Source of the DNA: Candidatus Iainarchaeum sp.
GTDB taxonomy: Archaea > Iainarchaeota > Iainarchaeia > Iainarchaeales > 0-14-0-20-34-12
DNA: 32,000 nt
Direction of reading: 5' to 3'
NCBI GenBank assembly: GCA_030649345.1
Contig: JAUSKK010000051.1
Coordinates: forward strand, 1,249-33,248
Positions within the stretch are counted from its first letter, which is position 1; each line of letters begins with the position of its first letter. Both the position numbers and the translations under genes were made by a program. The notes below the pieces were generated by a model that searched no databases, was not told where the DNA came from, and saw nothing but the letters and a program-made list of their open reading frames with translations. Positions 6,152-29,191 of this stretch are shown in pieces.

Positions 6152-6670
6152 TTGTCTGAACTTGAATGGATTACTTTAGTGAATGAACACGATACAATAC
6201 TCGGAAAAGAAGATCGAGTGATTGCCCGTAAAAAAGCTTTACTGCATCGCGGTGTTGGAGTCTTGGTCTTTAATTCCAATCAAGAATTATTGGTTCACAA
6301 ACGATCTTCCGAGAAAACAGTGTATCCTAATTTGTTTGATGTTATTGTAGGCGGCAGTGTTTTATGGAACGAAAGTTACTCACAAGCAGCTATTCGTGAA
6401 CTCCAAGAAGAAATTGGATTGAATTGTTTAGATTTAAAATTTTTATTTCCATTCAAATATCGTTCCATTGAACGCAATCTAAATTTTGAAATTTTTACCT
6501 GCATCATGAATCAAAAAGCAGTATTGCAAAAAGAAGAAATCAAATACAGTTTATTTTTGAATCTAGATCAAGTGATTGAATTAATGAAAAGCGAAGGATT
6601 TTGTCCTTACGCGCACGGAATCATGAACGAGTACTTTAAATTAATTCACAAGCCTTTGGTGATTGAATGA
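6152..6670 (+). CDS. Nudix hydrolase, paralogue of 2360..2866
   Basis: Nudix box GSVLWNESYSQAAIRELQEEIGL. Collinear similarity to the first Nudix (VNE.DT.LGK, LLHRG.GVLVFN, ELL.H.R, PNL.D). TTG start preceded by AGGTGAG. Confidence 0.8.
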   Translation: MSELEWITLVNEHDTILGKEDRVIARKKALLHRGVGVLVFNSNQELLVHKRSSEKTVYPNLFDVIVGGSVLWNESYSQAAIRELQEEIGLNCLDLKFLFPFKYRSIERNLNFEIFTCIMNQKAVLQKEEIKYSLFLNLDQVIELMKSEGFCPYAHGIMNEYFKLIHKPLVIE

Positions 6671-6685
6671 ATTCAAAACCACTGG

Positions 6686-6772
6686 TTTTGAAAATTTGTG
6701 AAAATTTAGCGAATTTTCACAATTATAAAATTCAAAAGAATTTTATATTTTTAAAATTCAGGAGAATTTTAA
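6686..6772 (+). promoter_or_regulatory. Putative promoter/operator of the citryl-CoA synthetase operon
   Basis: Two GAAAATTT boxes (6690-6697, 6700-6707). Perfect 9-bp inverted repeat GTGAAAATT/AATTTTCAC (6698-6706 / 6712-6720), i.e. TGAAAA-N9-TTTTCA. A/T-rich TATA-like ATTATAAAA (6722-6730). SD CAGGAG (6759-6764). Block 6713-6746 is 31/34 identical to 15190-15223. Confidence 0.5.
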
Positions 6773-7966
6773 ATGAAACTGTTTGAGTTTGAAGGAAAAC
6801 AATTATTTCAAAAATATAAAATTAGTATTCCCATGAGTACTGTTTTTTCCAAGGAAGTAAAAATAAATTTACTGGAATTCAAGCAAGGATATGCTGTGAA
6901 AGCTCAAGTAACTGCAGGCAAACGCGGAGTTTCCGGCGGCGTGGTATTAACTCATTCAAAAATTGAAGCTGAACAAGCAGTGCACGAATTATTTTCTAAA
7001 AAAATTCATGGCTTTCCAGTTGAACATGTATTGGTAGAAGAAAAACAGAATATTGAGTGCATGTATTATTTTTCAATTACGTATGATACTGTAGAAAAAT
7101 GTCCGGTTTTGTCTTTTTCAAAAAATGGCGGAATTGATATTGAAAAAATGGTTGACTTATACAGACTAGATATTCCTATTGAATATAATTCTAAACAAGT
7201 TTTAGATTGGCTGAATTCTATTGGTTTACAGAAAGTGAATTTAAGTGATTTAGAACAACTGATTTGTCAAGCATTTACTTGTTTTTTAGAAGAAGATTTA
7301 CGAGTCTTAGAAATCAATCCATTGGTTTTTTCACAAGAACAAAAATGGATTGCGTGTGATTCCAAAATTTTAACAGACGATGATGCTCAGTTTCGACACA
7401 AAGAAAGAATTTTTCCGTCAAGGAATGAGTTTGGAAAAATTCCAACCATTCGAGAATTGCAAGCTAAAGAAATTGACCAAGATGATTATCGAGGAGTAGG
7501 TGGAAAGTATACTGAATTGACTGGCAATATTGCTATGTTGACTGCTGGCGGTGGTGCTAGTTTAACGAATATGGATGCTTTGTTAGCGTATGGTGGAAAG
7601 CCTGCGAATTATACTGAATATGGGGGTAATCCTCCACAAGAAAAAGTCTATAAGTTAACAAAAGTTATCTTATCTAAACCTGGTTTGGTGGGTTGTTGGC
7701 ATGTAGGTGGAACTGCAAATAATACTCAAATTGATGTCACAATGAAAGGTTTTGCTTTAGCTTTAGAGGAAATTAAGCCAGAGTATCCGATTGTGGTTCG
7801 AAGAGATGGACCAAATTCAAGTGAAGGTTTTAGAATTTTAGAAGAAACTGCTAAAAAATTAAAATTGAATTTGAAATGGTTTGACAAAAATATGCCTATG
7901 ACTGAGAGTGCAGAAGTGTTAATGAAAATGGTTAAAGAGTATCAAAAAAAGAAAGGATTGAATTAG
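6773..7966 (+). CDS. ccsA: ATP-grasp beta-type subunit of citryl-CoA synthetase / ATP-citrate lyase family
   Basis: The N-terminus is SucC-like (MKLFEFEGKQLF). The C-terminal half carries motifs I associate with ACL rather than SucC. These are LTAGGGAS, PANYTEYGGNPPQEKVYKLTKVIL, GGTANNTQIDVTMKGF and IVVRRDGPNSSEGFRIL (compare ACLY AGGGASV, ANYGEYSGAP, GGSIANFTNV, VRRGGPNYQEG). Confidence 0.7.
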   Translation: MKLFEFEGKQLFQKYKISIPMSTVFSKEVKINLLEFKQGYAVKAQVTAGKRGVSGGVVLTHSKIEAEQAVHELFSKKIHGFPVEHVLVEEKQNIECMYYFSITYDTVEKCPVLSFSKNGGIDIEKMVDLYRLDIPIEYNSKQVLDWLNSIGLQKVNLSDLEQLICQAFTCFLEEDLRVLEINPLVFSQEQKWIACDSKILTDDDAQFRHKERIFPSRNEFGKIPTIRELQAKEIDQDDYRGVGGKYTELTGNIAMLTAGGGASLTNMDALLAYGGKPANYTEYGGNPPQEKVYKLTKVILSKPGLVGCWHVGGTANNTQIDVTMKGFALALEEIKPEYPIVVRRDGPNSSEGFRILEETAKKLKLNLKWFDKNMPMTESAEVLMKMVKEYQKKKGLN

Positions 7967-7967
7967 T

Positions 7968-8858
7968 ATGAGTATTTTGGTTGGAAAAGGTTCCCGAATT
8001 TTAATTCAAGGAATTACTGGAAGAGAAGCTTCTATGATTTTGCCGGATATGTTAAAATATGGTTCGAAGGTTTTAGCTGGAGTAACTCCAGGAAAAGGCG
8101 GACAAACCATTCAAGGAATTCCTGTGTATGATTCTGTTAAAGAAGCTTTGGATATTCATTCAGAAATTAATACTTCTTTGGTTTATGTTCCTCCGTTTGC
8201 TGCAAAACAAGCATGCATGGAGGCTTTAGATAATGGAATTCATTTATTGAATGTTGTAACTGAACGAGTACCTGTACGCGATAGTTGGGCGATTATTAAG
8301 AAAGCCAAAGAACTGAATGCTCGAGTTATTGGTCCAACTTCTTTGGGAATTATTTCTCCAGGCAAATGTAAGCTGGGTCCAATTGGAGGAAATGATCCTA
8401 GTTCAGTGTATCAAGAAGGTTCAATTGGTGTAATGTCTAAAAGTGGGGGTATGACTACTGAGACTTCTTGGGTTTTGCGTTTGAATGATTTTGGTCAAAG
8501 CACTGCAGTTGGTTTGGGCGGCGATGTATTAATGGGTTCTATGTTTACAGACTTGTTGCCTTTGTTTAATGAAGACCAGCAAACCAAGGCTATTGTAATA
8601 TTCGGAGAATTGGGTGGCTTGCAAGAGAATGCTGTGGCAGAATATGTAAAACACTTTGGCCAGCCTAAGCCCATTGTTGCTTTTATTGCTGGAAAGTTTT
8701 CAGAACACTTGCCTCAAGCCATTTTTGGTCATGCCGGTGCCATTATCCAAGGCGGTAAAGATTCACCACATGAAAAAATTAAAGAATTAGAAACTGCAGG
8801 AATACGCGTTGCAAAAGTACATCACGAGATAGGGGAAATATTGAAGGAAGTTTTATAA
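7968..8858 (+). CDS. ccsB: CoA-binding alpha-type subunit of citryl-CoA (or succinyl-CoA) synthetase
   Basis: SucD-like throughout: MSIL..., GVTPGKGG, SKSGGMT. Phosphohistidine loop FGHAGAIIQGGK. The start is 1 nt after the upstream gene's stop. Confidence 0.7.
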   Translation: MSILVGKGSRILIQGITGREASMILPDMLKYGSKVLAGVTPGKGGQTIQGIPVYDSVKEALDIHSEINTSLVYVPPFAAKQACMEALDNGIHLLNVVTERVPVRDSWAIIKKAKELNARVIGPTSLGIISPGKCKLGPIGGNDPSSVYQEGSIGVMSKSGGMTTETSWVLRLNDFGQSTAVGLGGDVLMGSMFTDLLPLFNEDQQTKAIVIFGELGGLQENAVAEYVKHFGQPKPIVAFIAGKFSEHLPQAIFGHAGAIIQGGKDSPHEKIKELETAGIRVAKVHHEIGEILKEVL

Positions 8859-8881: not shown

Positions 8882-9352
8882 ATGCCCATCAATTTCCCTA
8901 AATTATTTGTTTCTATTTTCATTTGTTTTTTAGCTGGTTTAATTGGCTCAATTTTTACTTTTTCTGCAATTCCAACTTGGTATGCTGGATTGGTTAAGCC
9001 TTGGTTTTCTCCGCCTAATTTTTTGTTTGCACCAGTTTGGACAATCTTGTATGTATTAATGGGAATTGCTTTGTATTTAATTTGGCGTAAAGGATTTCAA
9101 GAAAACAAAACATCCATAAAAATATTTTTTGTTCAATTATTGCTTAATGCTTTTTGGTCAATTGTGTTTTTTGGATTCAAACAATTATTCAATGCATTCA
9201 TTGTGATCATTTTCTTATGGATCAGTATTCTGGCATGCATTTTATTATTTTATAAAATTGACAAAAAAGCAAGTTACTTGTTAATTCCTTATTTAGCTTG
9301 GGTTAGCTTTGCAGGAATCCTAAACTATTCTGTCTGGGCATTAAATGGTTAA
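8882..9352 (+). CDS. tspO: TspO/MBR family tryptophan-rich membrane protein
   Basis: Five hydrophobic segments and the family-typical W/P-rich motifs WYAGLVKPWFSPPNFLFAPVWTILYVLMG and YLAWVSFAGILNYSVW. Confidence 0.85.
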   Translation: MPINFPKLFVSIFICFLAGLIGSIFTFSAIPTWYAGLVKPWFSPPNFLFAPVWTILYVLMGIALYLIWRKGFQENKTSIKIFFVQLLLNAFWSIVFFGFKQLFNAFIVIIFLWISILACILLFYKIDKKASYLLIPYLAWVSFAGILNYSVWALNG

Positions 9353-10048: not shown

Positions 10049-11326
10049 ATGAAACAATTTTTCATTATTGGAACTTTACTTGTTTTATTAATTGCTGGAT
10101 GCACTACCCCAATTCAAGTACCTGGAAACAATGATGAACCAGAACCAGTTATTACCGAAAAACCAGTTCTAGATGACAGCCAAGCTACAATTGAAGGAGT
10201 TAACCAAATTGTACAAGGTAATAGTCAATTTGGATTCAATCTATATTCTAAATTACCTCAAGATTCAAGCAATGTATTCTTTTCACCGTATAGTATTAGC
10301 ACAGCCATTGCTATGGCTTATGAAGGAGCACAAGAACAAACAGCTCAAGAAATACAAACAGTATTCGGTTTCCCAGTAGACAATTCAGTTTTACGTTCCG
10401 CAAATGCAAGTATTTACAATAAATACAATAAAAAAGATTTGAATTACATTTTGTCTACAGCCAATGCTTTATGGGTGCAACAAGATTATACTTTGTTAGA
10501 TAATTACAAAAATGTTGCCCAAAATTCTTACGGCGGAAAAGCAAGCAATGTAGACTTTGTTAACCAAACTGAACAAACAAGGCAAACTATTAATTCATGG
10601 GTTGAAAATGAAACTTATGGAAAAATCAAAAATTTATTCGGGCCAGGAAGTTTAACTCCAGATTATCGTTTGGTTATCACAAACGCAATTTATTTTAAAG
10701 GAAAATGGAAAGAAAAATTCAACGAAGAATCCACGGAAAATCAAGACTTTACTTTAGCCAATGGAAGTAAAGTACAAGTTCCAATGATGAGACAATTTAA
10801 TGAAGATTTTAGATATGCTGAAACCAATGAATGGAAAGCGCTTGAAATGGATTACGAAGGAAACGATTTATCTATGTTAATTTTATTGCCCAAAGAAAAT
10901 AATCTAACTGAACTTGAACAAAATTTAACTCTAGAATCTGTAAAAAATTTAAAAGAACAAATGAGCTATGAAACAACCAATGTATTTTTTCCAAGATTTA
11001 AATTCAATACAAAATATTCACTCAATGATTCTTTAGGCCAATTGGGAATGCCGACTGCGTTTTCAAATGCTGCTAATTTTTCAGGAATTACAGGTTCTCA
11101 AGACTTAAAAATTGGAATTGTAATTCACCAAGCATTTGTGGAAGTCAATGAAAAAGGAACTGAAGCAGCTGCAGCTACCGGGATAGGATTTGAATTAACC
11201 TCTGCTCCATTTGAACCGGAAGAACCTAAAGAATTCAAAGCAGACCATCCATTTATTTTCGTTATTCAAGACACAGAAACAGGCAATATTTTGTTTATGG
11301 GAAAAGTCAATAATCCTTTAAATTAA
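10049..11326 (+). CDS. Serpin with lipoprotein-type signal peptide
   Basis: Lipobox LLIAGC (Cys18). Serpin core motifs FFSPYSISTAIAMAY and NAIYFKGKW. Inhibitory-type hinge EKGTEAAAATG (about nt 11150-11218). C-terminal signature FKADHPFIFVIQD...GNILFMGKVNNP. Confidence 0.9.
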   Translation: MKQFFIIGTLLVLLIAGCTTPIQVPGNNDEPEPVITEKPVLDDSQATIEGVNQIVQGNSQFGFNLYSKLPQDSSNVFFSPYSISTAIAMAYEGAQEQTAQEIQTVFGFPVDNSVLRSANASIYNKYNKKDLNYILSTANALWVQQDYTLLDNYKNVAQNSYGGKASNVDFVNQTEQTRQTINSWVENETYGKIKNLFGPGSLTPDYRLVITNAIYFKGKWKEKFNEESTENQDFTLANGSKVQVPMMRQFNEDFRYAETNEWKALEMDYEGNDLSMLILLPKENNLTELEQNLTLESVKNLKEQMSYETTNVFFPRFKFNTKYSLNDSLGQLGMPTAFSNAANFSGITGSQDLKIGIVIHQAFVEVNEKGTEAAAATGIGFELTSAPFEPEEPKEFKADHPFIFVIQDTETGNILFMGKVNNPLN

Positions 11327-11925: not shown

Positions 11926-12114
11926 ATGGTTCGAGGAATTATTTTAGGAATTCAGTTACTGTTGGAATTGGGTTTAGCTTATTTTTTGGTTTTATTAATC
12001 TCCAATATTGCAGTATTTAATTTTGGAATGGAAACCATTCAACTGGTTATTGCTAGTTTGCTTTTTATAGGATTGCTAATTTTCACTGTGAAAAAATTAC
12101 CGTATCAAGAATAG
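11926..12114 (+). CDS. Possible small two-TM membrane protein
   Basis: 62-aa ORF, two hydrophobic stretches, ending 15 nt upstream of the citryl-CoA lyase gene. No family recognised. Confidence 0.3.
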   Translation: MVRGIILGIQLLLELGLAYFLVLLISNIAVFNFGMETIQLVIASLLFIGLLIFTVKKLPYQE

Positions 12115-14319: not shown

Positions 14320-15117
14320 ATGAAGCCCAAATTTAGTGGAAAAGGAATTTTGTCTAAAAAACATGGGGCTGTTTTAAGCAGATTGTTGAAAGGAAAACAA
14401 AAACGAGCCATTGCCCGGGAATTGAATCTCAGTGAAGCTGGTGTGGAAACCCGATTGAATATTCTTTGGCCGTATCTTGGAGAAAGTACTCAGCAGTTGA
14501 TTGAATCTAGGCGAAGAAGTTCAAAAACAGAAAAACCTACTTTGGATTCAAAAAAATTAATTGATTCTTTAGATCGGGAATTAGAAAGTAATCCAAATCT
14601 AAGTACTTTGAAAAAATTAGCAGAAGAATTTAAAGTTAAACCAGCAGTTATTTTGCATGAATTGAAATTGGCTGGAGTTTTTTTTAAACCAGAACTTGCA
14701 AGAAAATGGCTGGAATTCTGGAAAGAAGTAGCACGTGTAAGAAAATTACATTTAGTAGATCAAGCTCAAGTACTCCGAATTAGTCCGGAAAAAGTGCGTA
14801 AATTGCAGCGTCGATTTCAGCAAGGATTTCAAATAAAAGAAATGCGAACTTTTTTAAAAGAATTAACTAGAGCCGGTTGGTGGAAAAGTGATTATAGGTC
14901 TAAGCTTGGAGGGCGTGCAATTCAAAAAAGAGATTGGCAAGTCAAAGAAGATCTGGCTTTACTGAATAGTTTAGCTGAAGCATCCAGTGAAACATATGCC
15001 GCTTTGATGGGTTCACTTTTTAATCAATACGCCATCCAAGAGTATGCATTCAGGAAAAAAAATAAGCTGCCAATTCCCAAGTTAATTGCAACTATTGTCG
15101 AGGTAGATTCTACATGA
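14320..15117 (+). CDS. Orphan DNA-binding protein with N-terminal LuxR/GerE-type helix-turn-helix
   Basis: aa 11-54 (nt 14350-14481) LSKKHGAVLSRLLKGKQKRAIARELNLSEAGVETRLNILWPYLG follows the GerE pattern L(T/S)xxExxVLxLLxxGxxxxxIAxxLxxSxxTVxxHxxxIxxKLG. Basic N-terminus MKPKFSGKG. The remaining ~200 aa are unassigned. Confidence 0.6.
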   Translation: MKPKFSGKGILSKKHGAVLSRLLKGKQKRAIARELNLSEAGVETRLNILWPYLGESTQQLIESRRRSSKTEKPTLDSKKLIDSLDRELESNPNLSTLKKLAEEFKVKPAVILHELKLAGVFFKPELARKWLEFWKEVARVRKLHLVDQAQVLRISPEKVRKLQRRFQQGFQIKEMRTFLKELTRAGWWKSDYRSKLGGRAIQKRDWQVKEDLALLNSLAEASSETYAALMGSLFNQYAIQEYAFRKKNKLPIPKLIATIVEVDST

Positions 15118-15118
15118 T

Positions 15119-15250
15119 TTTAAATTTGAGAAATTTAAAAACTTTTGAAAATTTAAGAAATTTCAACACTATTGTTGAAAACTTAATAGATTTTCAAAAT
15201 CATAAAATTCAAGAGAATTTTATTGCTTTAAAAAACCAGGAGGTTTTTTA
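15119..15250 (+). promoter_or_regulatory. Putative promoter/operator of the SdhA/FrdA flavoprotein gene
   Basis: AAATTT-containing boxes at 15122-27, 15131-36, 15149-54 and 15158-63. TGAAAA (15176-81)-N9-TTTTCA (15191-96). Block 15190-15223 is 31/34 identical to 6713-6746. SD CAGGAGG (15237-43) lies 7 nt before the ATG. Confidence 0.5.
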
Positions 15251-16996
15251 ATGAATGAAAAAATAACAGAGTATCAAACAGATGTTTTAATTGTTGGATC
15301 CGGCGGATCTGGACTGCGGTGTGCCATTGAATTATGCGATCAAGGAATTAAAGATATTTTAGTTATTGGAAAATGCAAATTAGGAGAAGCCCACACCAAA
15401 GAAGCTGAAGGCGGAATTAATGCAGCTTTAGGAAATGTAGACAAAGAAGACAATTGGTTATGGCATGTAAAAGATACTTTAAGTGAAAGTGGTTATTTAG
15501 CCAATGGAAAACAAGCAGAATTGGTATGCAAAAATATGATTCCAGACATTCAAGAATTGCAAACCATGGGTGTTCCATTTAATCAAACAAAAAATGGAAA
15601 AATAAATCAAAGACAATTCGGAGGGCAAACATTTAATCGAACTTGTTTTGTAGGAGATTATACTGGAAAAGCAATATTGGAAACTTTAGTAAAACAGGTT
15701 CAAAAAAGAAAAATTAAAAATTTAGAAAATATTTATGTAACCCAGTTATTGGCCAGTAAAGGAAAAATTTCTGGAATCTTTGGACTTGATTTTGAATCAG
15801 GACAATTTGTACAAATTCAGGCAAAAATTGTTGTTTTGGCCACTGGAGGATATACTCGGGTGTACAAAACAGCCAGTTCAGATCAATTTGTGAATACAGG
15901 GGACAGTATTTGGCTTGCATTGAATGCTGGTTTAGAATTAAAGGACATGGAATTGGTTCAATTTCATCCAACTGGAATGGTTTGGCCGGAAGAAGCTCAA
16001 GGAAAATTGATTACCGAAGGAGTCAGAAGCGAAGGAGGATATTTGACAAATTCTAAAGGAGAACGATTCATGCAAAAATATGATTCTGAACGCATGGAAT
16101 TAAGCACACGTGATCGAGTAGCTAGGGCAAATTTTTTTGAAATTCGCACAGGCAATACCACACCCCATGGCGGAGTTTGGTTAGATATAACACATAGAAC
16201 ACCCGAGTACATTGATGAACGCTTGCCGAAGATGATTCAACAATTCAAACAATACGGAAATGTAGATATCAAAACAGAAAAAATGGAAGTAGCTCCAACA
16301 GCCCATTATTCAATGGGTGGAATTGTAATTCAACCAGAAACAGGAGAAACTAAAATCAAAGGATTGTATGCCATCGGCGAAGCTACTGCAGGATTGCATG
16401 GCGGCAATAGGCTGGGGGGAAATTCTTTGGCTGAAATTATTGTTTGGGGAAAATTAGCCGGCAAAGATATTGCAAAAAAAGTAAAAAAATTTAAACAAAT
16501 TAAAGTGAATTCAAAAATAGTTCAAAACGAAATTGAACGAATTCAAAACTTGTTTTCTGGAACAAAATCTAACCCAGTTGTTTTACGGACTGAACTGCAA
16601 AAACTCATGTGGAATCATGCAGGCGTTGTAAAAAATGAAAAAGATTTACAAAAAGGATTAACTGAATTAGCTATTTTAAAAGAATTAACTAAAAATGCAA
16701 AAATTAAAACTGGATTAAAAAATAATTTAGAACTAATTACTGTACTGGATCTAGAAGCTCAATTGGCAACCAGTGAATGTATTTTAAAAAGTGCTTTGGC
16801 TAGAAAAGAATCCAGAGGAGCTCATTACCGGGAAGACTTTTTAAAAACAAAAAAAGAATGGCTGGTTAATTTAATTTGCCGGCAAGACTTAAAAGGAAAA
16901 ATTAAGTTAACAAAAAAGAAAGTAGTTAAACCCAGTGCTGAAGTTTTAAAATTTTTGAAAAAAATTAAAGAAAAATACGGTGAATGGAAAAACTAA
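15251..16996 (+). CDS. sdhA: Succinate dehydrogenase / fumarate reductase flavoprotein subunit (SdhA/FrdA/TfrA type)
   Basis: FAD fold DVLIVGSGGSGLRCA. AHTKEAEGGINAAL has His at the covalent-FAD position. FHPTG, HYSMGG and ESRGAHYREDF are present. 581 aa is SdhA-sized, not NadB-sized. Confidence 0.85.
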   Translation: MNEKITEYQTDVLIVGSGGSGLRCAIELCDQGIKDILVIGKCKLGEAHTKEAEGGINAALGNVDKEDNWLWHVKDTLSESGYLANGKQAELVCKNMIPDIQELQTMGVPFNQTKNGKINQRQFGGQTFNRTCFVGDYTGKAILETLVKQVQKRKIKNLENIYVTQLLASKGKISGIFGLDFESGQFVQIQAKIVVLATGGYTRVYKTASSDQFVNTGDSIWLALNAGLELKDMELVQFHPTGMVWPEEAQGKLITEGVRSEGGYLTNSKGERFMQKYDSERMELSTRDRVARANFFEIRTGNTTPHGGVWLDITHRTPEYIDERLPKMIQQFKQYGNVDIKTEKMEVAPTAHYSMGGIVIQPETGETKIKGLYAIGEATAGLHGGNRLGGNSLAEIIVWGKLAGKDIAKKVKKFKQIKVNSKIVQNEIERIQNLFSGTKSNPVVLRTELQKLMWNHAGVVKNEKDLQKGLTELAILKELTKNAKIKTGLKNNLELITVLDLEAQLATSECILKSALARKESRGAHYREDFLKTKKEWLVNLICRQDLKGKIKLTKKKVVKPSAEVLKFLKKIKEKYGEWKN

Positions 16997-17005
16997 CTTT
17001 TGCAT

Positions 17006-17035
17006 ATTGGAAGAATTAATTATTTTTCTTCCAAT
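17006..17035. terminator. Hairpin between the convergent sdhA and ferredoxin genes
   Basis: Perfect 10-bp stem ATTGGAAGAA (17006-17015) / TTCTTCCAAT (17026-17035) with a 10-nt T-rich loop, followed by TTTT. The right arm overlaps the last ferredoxin codons. Confidence 0.3.
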
Positions 17036-17259
17036 TTTACAATTTTAATAATGGCCACAGGACAAGCATCGGCTGCATCCAAAGCTGCTTTGTAATCTTT
17101 TTCATCAATTATTTTTACAAAATTTCCATTTTCGTCTTGTGATTGTTTTAAGTCTGCTTTTCCGTCATTGGCCATTTCAAAGTCATTCGGAGACATGCCT
17201 ACACAAGCGCCTGCACCAATGCATCCATTTCGATCATACACAATTTTATATTTCACCAT
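17020..17259 (-). CDS. Small single-cluster ferredoxin (Pyrococcus furiosus type)
   Basis: YDRNGCIGAGACVGMSPNDFEM...GKA...ADACPVAIIKI parallels the P. furiosus ferredoxin layout C-I-G-x-x-x-C...FEM..GKA...ACPV.AI. Only three candidate ligand Cys are evident, so the cluster may be 3Fe-4S. GGAGG SD. Confidence 0.8.
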   Translation of the reverse strand: MVKYKIVYDRNGCIGAGACVGMSPNDFEMANDGKADLKQSQDENGNFVKIIDEKDYKAALDAADACPVAIIKIVKLEEK

Positions 17260-27701: not shown

Positions 27702-29129
27702 TTAGTGTTTCTTTTTGCCTTGGTGTACACATTTGCCTAAAGCATCTTCTGCTGCTTCCATAATGGCTTCCGGCATGGTTGGATGCGGATGAATTACTGA
27801 AGCTAAATCTTCTAATTGGGCAGCCATTTCAATAGCTAAAGCACATTCACTAATTAAGTCTGAAGCATGTTCGCCTACAATTTGGATTCCTAAAACAATT
27901 TGAGATTCTTGGTCAGCAACAATTTTTACAAAACCTTCTGTTTTATTCATGGTTAAAGCTCGACCTAAAGCTTTGAATGGAAACTTTCCAATAACTACAG
28001 TATATCCTTGCGCTTTGGCTTCATGTTCTTGCAATCCAACATAAGCAATTTCTGGATCTGTAAATACTACGGCTGGAACCACGTGATTATCAAAAGCAAC
28101 ATTATGGCCGGCAATCACTTCAGCTGCAATCTTTGCTTGCCTGGAAGCTTTATGCGCTAACATTGGATTTCCTGTAATGTCTCCAATGGCAAAAATTCGA
28201 TTATCGGTTGTTCTGCATTGTTCATTAATTATCATAAAACCTTTTTCATCCAATTGAACTTTAGTGGTGTCTAATTGAAGTCCTTCCGAGTAAGGTTTTC
28301 TTCCAACTGCAACCAAAACTTTTTCAACTTCGATTGAAAATTTTTCTCCTTTATTTTTTGGATTCACCGACAAAATAACTGAGTTGTCTTTTTTTTCACA
28401 TCCTTCAACAGCGGATTGTAGTAAAATTTTAACTCCATATTTTTCGAGTTGCTTTTGTAATGGCACAATTAATTCAGGGTCTGTACCCGGCAATAACTGG
28501 TCTCCTAATTCAATGATTGTAACTTTGCATCCAAGTTTAGCGTATACAATTCCTAATTCTAATCCAATGTATCCTCCGCCGACTACTGCCAAAGATTCTG
28601 GAGCATCGCGTAAAGCCAAAGCGCCTGTTGAACTTAAAATTTGGCGTTCATCAAATTTCATGAAAGGCAATTCAACTGGTTTAGAACCAGTGGCAATAAT
28701 ACAGTAATCAAATTCTACAGTTGCTACATTTTTGTCATTCGGAATTCCAAGAGTACGAGAATCTTTAAAGAATGCTTTTCCTTTCAATATTTCCACACCA
28801 TAATTTTTGCATAAAAAAGCAATTCCTTCAACCAATTTTTTGACTACATCTTTTTTCCAAGACTGCATTTTTTCAGTATCCAAAGAAACAGCTTGAGCAC
28901 TAATTCCAAAGAGTTGACTTTCTTCAATATTTCGAAAAAATGAGCTTGCGTGAATTAATGCTTTGCTGGGAATGCAGCCAACATTCAAACAAACTCCGCC
29001 CAATTCTGTGTCTTCAATTAAAATTACCGATTTACCTAATTGTGCTGCGCGTAAAGCTGCTACATATCCACCTGGGCCGGAGCCAATAATGGCTACATCG
29101 TATTTGACTGCAATATCACCCATCACCAT
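27702..29129 (-). CDS. lpdA: Dihydrolipoamide dehydrogenase (E3)
   Basis: DVAIIGSGPGGY, redox disulfide GGVCLNVGCIPSKAL, second dinucleotide fold VVGGGYIGLE, C-terminal interface HPHPTMPEA. Confidence 0.9.
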   Translation of the reverse strand: MVMGDIAVKYDVAIIGSGPGGYVAALRAAQLGKSVILIEDTELGGVCLNVGCIPSKALIHASSFFRNIEESQLFGISAQAVSLDTEKMQSWKKDVVKKLVEGIAFLCKNYGVEILKGKAFFKDSRTLGIPNDKNVATVEFDYCIIATGSKPVELPFMKFDERQILSSTGALALRDAPESLAVVGGGYIGLELGIVYAKLGCKVTIIELGDQLLPGTDPELIVPLQKQLEKYGVKILLQSAVEGCEKKDNSVILSVNPKNKGEKFSIEVEKVLVAVGRKPYSEGLQLDTTKVQLDEKGFMIINEQCRTTDNRIFAIGDITGNPMLAHKASRQAKIAAEVIAGHNVAFDNHVVPAVVFTDPEIAYVGLQEHEAKAQGYTVVIGKFPFKALGRALTMNKTEGFVKIVADQESQIVLGIQIVGEHASDLISECALAIEMAAQLEDLASVIHPHPTMPEAIMEAAEDALGKCVHQGKKKH

Positions 29130-29191
29130 GTTACATCACAATAAGTAATGTATATTATAAAGTTTGAATTTAAAATAGTAATTGATTGATT

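Follow-up and report, generated by a model that had tools for sequence, protein, structure and literature searches.

We report here that the gaps in front of ccsA and of an SdhA/FrdA-type gene in a Candidatus Diapherotrites (DPANN) archaeon are homologous from end to end, and that a conserved 34-nt block common to both is only the core of this larger homology. We tentatively propose, with slightly less than even confidence, that the block is what is best preserved of a duplicated, lineage-specific spacer module of ~100-130 nt that would serve as a cis-acting adaptor, or relay. The evidence consists of two copies in one MAG, read from sequence alone.

CcsA, the SdhA-like protein and the HTH protein described below match proteins of this MAG with 100% identity. 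The MAG carries the locus tags Q7S92_, and the window, that is the whole 32-kb stretch of DNA that was analysed, has a G+C content of 34%. The source being archaeal, promoters of the BRE/TATA type are to be expected. All positions given below are those of the window, and all features with coordinates are on the + strand. Around the first copy the gene order is carB, a NUDIX gene (6152-6670), the spacer, ccsA (6773-7966), ccsB (7968-8858) and TspO, ccsA and ccsB encoding citryl-CoA synthetase-type subunits 3' of the spacer. Around the second copy it is a hydrophobic 62-aa ORF annotated by NCBI (11926-12114), ccl, fumC, a gene for an orphan tandem-HTH protein (14320-15117), the spacer and the monocistronic SdhA/FrdA-type flavoprotein gene (15251-16996), called sdhA here. 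The CcsA/CcsB-type and SdhA/FrdA-type assignments of the original prediction are borne out by Pfam domains, with ATP-grasp_2 and Citrate_bind in CcsA, CoA_binding and Ligase_CoA in CcsB, and FAD_binding_2 and Succ_DH_flav_C in the SdhA-like protein. No sdhB, sdhC or sdhD lies beside the sdhA-like gene among the neighbouring genes inspected, and a ferredoxin gene is found near it on the opposite strand. Elsewhere, exact matches to the proteins of the window were found in one Logan sample only, from the same population.

The two copies of the block, at 6713-6746 upstream of ccsA (right arm of H1, spacer and H2; hairpins are named below) and at 15190-15223 upstream of sdhA, are identical at 31/34 positions, as originally claimed, with three differing positions. 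The similarity indeed goes beyond AT-richness, since a degenerate pattern that fits both copies matches these two sites only within the window, with 0 expected from 100 dinucleotide shuffles. The inverted repeat into which the block reaches has the described geometry in both copies, with TGAAAA at 6699-6704 and TTTTCA at 6714-6719 in the ccsA copy, TGAAAA at 15176-15181 and TTTTCA at 15191-15196 in the sdhA copy, and a 9-nt spacer in each. Its right arms end 53 and 54 nt 5' of the ATGs at 6773 and 15251, respectively. We also retrieved the CAGGAG(G) motif 8 nt (ccsA) and 7 nt (sdhA) 5' of the ATG, as well as the additional GAAA(A)TTT boxes at 6690 and 6700 in the ccsA copy and at 15130, 15147 and 15157 in the sdhA copy.

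The homology extends well outside the block. A gap-free repeat search returned 63 nt similar at 79%, and in a global alignment the entire NUDIX-ccsA gap (6671-6772) and the entire HTH-sdhA gap (15118-15250) are paralogous, from the upstream stop codon to the downstream ATG, with a column identity of 79%; the similarity ends at the ATG. The main difference between the two spacers is one 20-nt indel, the extra 20 nt of the sdhA copy being itself a nested hairpin, and a 1-nt indel is also present. No third copy of the block was found in the 32-kb window, the ccl-fumC operon included. Indeed, the promoter region of the smORF-ccl-fumC-HTH operon is an ordinary one and lacks the block. As the homology runs across the whole gap and takes in the loops and the ribosome-binding site, it points to a duplicated module and not to independent operator sites.

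A row of four perfect inverted repeats tiles each gap, and the arms differ from one repeat to the next. In the ccsA copy, H0 (6672-6692) is a perfect 9-bp inverted repeat, TTCAAAACC-ACT-GGTTTTGAA, and H1 (6696-6722) a perfect 11-bp one, TTGTGAAAATT-TAGCG-AATTTTCACAA, which holds the TGAAAA-N9-TTTTCA palindrome. They are followed by H2 (6724-6747), TATAAAATTC-AAAA-GAATTTTATA, and by H3 (6750-6773), TTTAAAATTC-AGGA-GAATTTTAAA, with a folding energy of -6.4 kcal/mol. In the sdhA copy, H0' (15118-15140) reads TTTTAAATTT-GAG-AAATTTAAAA. H1' (15143-15199) is composite: its outer stem, TTTTGAAAATTTA / TAGATTTTCAAAA, encloses a nested hairpin (15161-15180; TTTCAACA-CTAT-TGTTGAAA) that corresponds to the 20-nt indel, and an alternative inner stem (15175-15197) is the TGAAAA-N9-TTTTCA palindrome, whose arm is 7 bp long here and 11 bp long in the ccsA copy (TTGTGAAAATT/AATTTTCACAA). 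H2' (15202-15223) is ATAAAATTC-AAGA-GAATTTTAT and H3' (15228-15251) is TTAAAAAACC-AGGA-GGTTTTTTAA, at -8.4 kcal/mol. The block thus contains a second perfect palindrome missed by the original prediction, ATAAAATTC-N4-GAATTTTAT (6725-6746 and 15202-15223), and a third one (6750-6773 and 15228-15251) encloses the Shine-Dalgarno sequence in each copy.

Such structures are concentrated in these two gaps. When perfect inverted repeats with arms of at least 8 nt and loops of 3-7 nt were searched over the whole 32 kb, 11 were found, nine of them inside the two gaps (235 nt together); block shuffles gave a mean of 4.3 per window. The z-score of the minimum free energy of the whole spacer is -7.1 (+ strand) and -10.8 (- strand) for 6671-6772, and -6.0 and -6.6 for 15118-15250, and a separate fold test of both gaps against shuffles gave z from -5.7 to -7.8 on either strand. 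Strong folding is seen only in these 2 of the 19 intergenic regions, the other 17 ranging from -1.8 to +1.3 with the exception of one value of -3.6 on one strand. The fold energies of both strands are equal and the arms are perfectly Watson-Crick on both, so that an action at the RNA level and one at the DNA level fit alike; the sole strand asymmetry lies in two G-T wobbles, by which H1 and H1' become longer on the sense strand. Rfam gave no match at gathering score in the window and none at E<=1 in either spacer. A scan for sigma-70 promoters and intrinsic terminators returned no terminator-like site, and the sigma-70 promoter reading was dropped, the source being archaeal.

Comparison of the two copies suggests what is maintained in these hairpins. 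While the arms of H2 are identical between copies, in H3 (TTTAAAATTC vs TTAAAAAACC) three of the ten pairs differ between copies, in each case at both bases and never at one alone, so that pairing is 100%, against at most 67% in register-slid controls. A compensated change is also found in H1, where G6698-C6720 corresponds to T15175-A15197. Judged from the sequences of the two copies, it is base-pairing that is kept, rather than the sequence of a half-site. Palindromes of the A-rich/SD/T-rich type next to an ATG also occur sporadically in AT-rich bacteria, and H3 could be partly due to base composition.

The start signals of the downstream genes are embedded in the last two hairpins. In both copies the Shine-Dalgarno AGGA is the tetraloop of H3, and the last paired base of the hairpin is the A of the downstream ATG. 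The Shine-Dalgarno sequence of ccsA, AGGAG (6760-6764), lies in the loop and the closing pair of H3, and that of sdhA, AGGAGGT (15238-15244), lies in H3'. The TATA-like box that had been noticed beside the palindrome lies inside the block and was recovered in both copies: TATAAAAT (6724-6731) lies in the left arm of H2, 41 nt 5' of the ccsA ATG, and CATAAAAT (15201-15208) in H2', 42 nt 5' of the sdhA ATG. This distance of 41-42 nt resembles the 38 nt seen at the ccsA of L116, the locus that carries the closest CcsA (66% identity). We infer that the TATA-like box in H2 may be an internal archaeal promoter. If it were the main promoter, most transcripts would lack the start of the short ORFs described below.

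The spacer is specific to this lineage, since it is absent from both loci that provide the closest relatives of the downstream proteins. In L116, carB is directly upstream of ccsA, the leader has a TTTAAATA box 38 nt 5' of a TTG start and a GGTGA Shine-Dalgarno sequence, and the upstream region contains neither the palindrome nor any perfect inverted repeat. In L118, which encodes the closest SdhA (68% identity), the sdhA ATG comes 5 nt after the fumC stop, and the fumC-sdhA junction has no HTH gene and no spacer; the sdhA copy thus occupies a junction that is tight in relatives. The palindrome, which a conserved promoter signal would place at orthologous promoters, is therefore missing from L116 and L118 alike, an outcome that the original prediction had itself listed as counting against it; these relatives are distant, however, and the test is a weak one.

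Each gap is also spanned by a short ORF, which we call the relay ORF. In the ccsA gap it has 39 codons (6667-6786), its ATG overlaps the NUDIX stop codon (ATGA), and its own stop, TGA 6784-6786, lies 11 nt 3' of the ccsA ATG. In the sdhA gap it has 45 codons (15114-15251), starts within the HTH stop codon in the same manner (ATGA) and ends at TAA 15249-15251, which overlaps the sdhA start (TAATG). SD-like motifs precede both relay ATGs (GGTGAT, 6658-6663; GAGGT, 15100-15104); a SD 5-mer stands before 3.1% of all ATGs and 7/35 genes as background. Exactly one frame per gap is free of stops, whereas all three frames are interrupted by stops in the window's other same-strand spacers. The probability of an open frame by shuffling is 0.021 and 0.006, these values and those for the SD motifs being post hoc and not formal tests. 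We infer that the relay ORFs may be translated.

A straightforward reading of these frames would be that the spacers encode two genuine paralogous small proteins of 39 and 45 aa, the block being conserved as their coding core. Both frames are open, begin with a SD and an ATG and run in the same frame across the block; the 45-aa ORF was even called as a gene on Logan contig L129, although neither ORF is named in the NCBI annotation. The peptides are 56% identical over 25 residues, with a shared core ENLxxFxNxKIQxNFIxLK, but this identity follows from the similarity of the DNA. Indeed, the codons of the core show 2 synonymous against 8 non-synonymous differences, each of the three differences in the 34-nt block is likewise non-synonymous, and a small-gene test recovered the open frame with start signals and saw no purifying selection on the peptide. 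Moreover, the 20-nt and 1-nt indels shift the frame in which the homologous flanks of the core are read, and yet both copies are open. The frame shifts and the codon differences together argue for a constraint on nucleotides (the stems) and on openness, and not on the peptide. One would not expect a coding sequence to be covered by four perfect 8-11-bp palindromes either, and no further homologue was found among the loci compared, all of which makes this reading very improbable. The original prediction instead took the palindrome for the operator of a dedicated TCA regulon. That the two genes share a cis element that is not due to chance stands, but the operator and the regulon are not supported, in view of the absence of a third site in the window, the relatives without the palindrome and the compensated arms. 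In this reading, a regulator of dimeric or tandem-HTH type, for which the product of 14320-15117 is a candidate, would bind the palindromes of a small set of TCA genes, H1 lying 5' of the BRE/TATA as an activator-type site and H2, from the TATA to the start site, as a repressor-type one. The palindromes do flank or overlap a TATA-like box whose distance to the ATG is as in the L116 ccsA, both downstream genes are TCA-type, and GAAAATTT boxes are spaced by 10 nt. Position 14320-15117 does encode a DNA-binding-type, tandem-HTH protein, as predicted, and its gene adjoins the second copy. This protein has one close homologue (61% identity) and 11 remote relatives, all of tandem sigma-r4/GerE/HTH_23 type; its AlphaFold2 model has a pLDDT of 54.6. 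However, the HTH gene is found between fumC and sdhA in this lineage only and is not linked to sdhA in L118, and next to the close homologue (P0242) there is a 4-nt overlap between the HTH stop and the following gene, a hint that this locus lacks the spacer. The arms also differ among the four repeats, it is symmetry and not a half-site that is kept, and the homology covers loops, spacers and the ribosome-binding site, where independent operators would have unrelated flanks. Furthermore, the ccl-fumC operon of the window does without the block, and an operator leaves unexplained the open frames and the SD-ATG pairs at the upstream stop codons. Two further sequence motifs were set aside: a candidate third site 5' of ccl, TTTTCAC-T-GTGAAAA (12080-12094), is everted, lies inside the annotated 62-aa ORF and resembles pairs found in coding regions, and a CRP-like TGTGA...TCACA in H1 has a spacing of N15, not N6, and is not kept in the sdhA copy. 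A precedent for an archaeal operator of this kind is the palindromic TGM of Thermococcales, bound in Pyrococcus by TrmBL1 (TrmBL1/Tgr), with activation from sites 5' and repression from sites 3' of the BRE/TATA (PMC4706686). The present palindromes likewise are elements common to promoters of central-carbon genes in an archaeon. Nevertheless, the TGM is one ~17-bp motif of TATCAC-N5-GTGATA type, present at ~28-70 sites with unrelated flanks and served by a TrmB-family protein, whereas here four different perfect palindromes lie in a homologous spacer at two sites, with no TrmB gene nearby. Altogether, the evidence does not favour the operator, or a TCA regulon, and we regard this reading as improbable.

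The hairpins could also belong to a REP/BIME- or MITE-like dispersed repeat of several hairpins, selfish or neutral and without a dedicated regulatory role, whose copies would be tolerated for bringing a ribosome-binding site and keeping the frame open. The spacers do contain clustered, extragenic, hairpin-forming palindromes with their pairing kept, the 20-nt indel is itself a nested hairpin, and the module is lineage-specific. Repeats of this sort exist in other genomes. In a GTDB scan for ATAAAATTC-N4-GAATTTTAT, the matches listed did not include the source contig and were mostly single chance ones in AT-rich bacteria, but multiple matches to this H2 palindrome were listed for three archaeal genomes, each within dispersed multi-hairpin repeats. 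In PEXL01, a second Diapherotrites genome, a 160-230-nt chain of 5-7 hairpins is present at no fewer than four loci, in both orientations, and one of these hairpins has the same arms as H2 (ATAAAATTC/GAATTTTAT). There, the repeats are found in the gaps of divergent and of convergent gene pairs, 5' of tRNA-Asn and 3' of the RNase P RNA, and whole hairpins are gained or lost between copies as modules. A JGI metagenome scan for the geometry of H1 plus H2 gave five matches, all to one ~75-nt element made of an outer stem and two hairpins, in unrelated contexts; in viral contigs the composite pattern had no match and the H2 palindrome had five, which is chance level. Neither the PEXL01 nor the JGI repeats show similarity to the spacers of the window outside the searched arms. 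We take them to be of the same kind, and not to be demonstrated homologues. In addition, stops interrupt all six frames of the PEXL01 repeats, unlike the open copies of the window; the latter number only two in 32 kb, point in the same direction, and are each delimited precisely by a stop codon and an ATG. A Pfam scan found no transposase, RAYT or IS200/IS605 gene among the window proteins scanned, and the alignment shows no evident target-site duplications or terminal inverted repeats. REP-like palindromes have been reported in archaea, and REP/BIME chains are thought to affect mRNA stability, termination and downstream translation (PMC12306157; PMC2817692). The window spacers resemble these in being chains of short hairpin palindromes that fill intergenic or intercistronic gaps and in keeping pairing over sequence. 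REPs, however, are usually G+C-rich, RAYT-linked, present in tens to hundreds of copies and marked by GTAG/CGTC heads, whereas the spacers have A+T-rich arms without GTAG/CGTC heads, two known copies and no RAYT seen, and their chain extends exactly from stop codon to ATG with a SD and an open frame. Rickettsia palindromic elements are found in-frame in genes, and Neisseria Correia elements carry promoters and form mRNA hairpins. Like these elements and the haloarchaeal PATEs (mentioned in PMC3119063 and PMC4810608), the spacers are small non-coding palindromic modules copied within a genome, which can lie in or beside genes with expression preserved and may donate expression signals, but they show no sign of mobility, with four short hairpins in place of one long TIR hairpin, no TIR/TSD and two copies. 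A selfish or neutral repeat thus accounts for the hairpin architecture and the lineage specificity but not for the stop-to-start boundaries or the open frames, and it seems unlikely to us; the remaining probability goes to chance or other explanations.

The spacer module, read as an adaptor acting in cis, accounts for the homology from stop codon to ATG, the differing palindromes, their compensated changes, the SD in the loop, the relay ORF and the lineage specificity. An operator, on the other hand, explains the proximity of the TATA-like box and the HTH neighbour, but leaves the compensated symmetry, the homology of the whole gap and the open frames unexplained, as well as the absence of the block from the ccl-fumC operon and from relatives. 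The adaptor would act mainly on RNA. After finishing the upstream gene, ribosomes would reinitiate at the overlapping ATGA and read the spacer through its hairpins; the last of these would be melted on the way, and termination would fall on the downstream start. In this way the spacer, although long and structured, would let translation of ccsA and sdhA be coupled to that of the upstream cistron. A further role of the hairpins may be to stabilise or insulate segments of the mRNA, and the TATA-like box in H2 may provide an internal promoter as well, with a transcript that would begin at H3.

Parts of this scheme are familiar. Translational coupling by termination-reinitiation takes place at ATGA/TAATG overlaps, and leader peptides of the ermC/cat type are another known form of control by a short ORF. 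As in coupling by leader or relay ORFs, a short ORF here enters a hairpin that holds the downstream ribosome-binding site, and stop and start codons overlap. Unlike in the leader-ORF systems, the SD is in the loop and not in the stem, and the 2:3 pairing of arms is not available in both copies: an ermC-type attenuator was considered and rejected, as it could form in the ccsA copy only (6738-6759) and is impossible in the sdhA copy. We know of no hairpin or relay-ORF coupling device documented for DPANN archaea.

Under the adaptor reading, the two TCA genes have common signals because a spacer was copied within the lineage, and not because each acquired an operator. This would be a warning for motif-based inference of regulons in AT-rich genomes, where a pair of near-identical 'operators' can turn out to be paralogous spacers, their symmetry reflecting selection for structure. 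To our knowledge, almost nothing is known of gene regulation in DPANN archaea, whose reduced genomes are as a rule credited with little regulation. A broader idea, which we hold to be doubtful at present, is that DPANN archaea carry portable, 'translation-transparent' multi-hairpin adaptor cassettes that combine a TATA-like box, a loop-displayed SD and a relay ORF. Were this true, copying such cassettes into operon junctions could re-wire the expression of metabolic genes, and it would have placed ccsAB and a former member of a fumC-sdhA operon under the same signals. If the adaptor function is confirmed, these spacers would offer a testable case in which a hairpin chain, the display of a ribosome-binding site and a translated relay are joined between cistrons, and in which two central-carbon genes of a Diapherotrites archaeon gained common expression signals through a copied non-coding module.

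Only 7 of the 35 genes in the window are preceded by a match to a Shine-Dalgarno 5-mer. The majority lack this signal; ccsA and sdhA belong to the small group of strongly Shine-Dalgarno-led genes. In several cases (upstream of 10049, 22609, 23651, 29186 and 11926), a TATA-like box ends 19-24 nt ahead of the start codon, as is expected for leaderless mRNAs. Besides the hairpin-rich spacers upstream of ccsA and sdhA, the only intergenic fold outlier in the window is an inverted repeat at 29130-29185 (TACATTAC...GTGATGTA region; z -3.6, on one strand). It lies just 5′ of where the minus-strand gene 27702-29129 starts and forms a fold of -7.9 kcal/mol across that gene's initiation region. This DPANN archaeal contig also encodes a TspO/MBR-family protein (8882-9352, plus strand) and a full-length serpin (10049-11326, plus strand).

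Directly 5′ of ccl, we found a small plus-strand ORF (11926-12114, annotated by NCBI as Q7S92_06835), which encodes a strongly hydrophobic protein of 62 aa with two predicted membrane helices. The TATA-like CTTTTTAAAC ends about 24 nt upstream of its ATG, a leaderless-type geometry, and the ORF probably opens the ccl-fumC-HTH operon as its first gene. The product of the HTH gene (14320-15117, plus strand), which lies between fumC and sdhA in this lineage only, is an orphan protein; it is all-helical and has roughly three HTH-like units, with residues 10-44 being GerE-like. A search of 1.8 billion representatives returned one homologue at 61% and 11 remote tandem-HTH relatives. The SdhA/FrdA-type flavoprotein gene (15251-16996, plus strand) stands alone, without genes for iron-sulfur or membrane subunits, and is convergent with a small ferredoxin-like gene (17020-17259, minus strand). 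This solitary position and the convergent ferredoxin-like gene suggest that its product is not part of complex II but either a fumarate reductase of the soluble type or some other flavoenzyme.

Searches with the spacer hairpins also brought up repeated elements elsewhere. Five metagenome contigs of low GC content share, between unrelated flanks (L119 3611-3694, L120 3469-3561, L121 4432-4541, L122 1216-1267 and L123 667-716, in each contig's own coordinates), an element of about 75 nt that consists of an outer stem CTCAGAAATC/GATTTCTGAG around hairpins ATGAAAATCC/GGATTTTCAT and TAAAAATTC/GAATTTTTA. One reverse frame of its core is free of stops in 5/5 copies (core KSKNSKEFLGHEN..FHKS). The L120 and L122 copies are embedded in long open frames, a setting that recalls in-frame palindromic elements. 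In addition, "empty" outer-stem hairpins are present on their own (L119 1282-1303, L121 2752-2773).

Repeated elements with an identical 9-bp-arm hairpin, ATAAAATTC-N4-GAATTTTAT, whose closing flanks are G+C-rich, are present in both a Woesearchaeota MAG and a Thermoplasmata MAG. Sites among the matches listed for the two MAGs are L002 1210-1231, L068 1106-1127 and 1777-1798, L010 4992-5013, L021 380-401 and 1442-1463, and L079 3194-3215; two of the Thermoplasmata copies, those in L010 and L079, each have a tRNA-Ala gene about 300 nt away.

Finally, the genome PEXL01 (Candidatus Diapherotrites archaeon CG08_land_8_20_14_0_20_34_12) contains a dispersed repeat of 160-230 nt made of 5-7 consecutive perfect hairpins, with copies, among the matches listed, at L060 840-988, L075 1551-1750, L101 7728-7875 and L110 5542-5730. 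Arms are conserved between copies while loops vary, and copies differ by insertion or deletion of whole hairpins. They are found upstream of tRNA-Asn, downstream of the RNase P RNA, between divergent genes and between convergent genes. This repeat seems to represent a REP/BIME-like DPANN family that is as yet undescribed.
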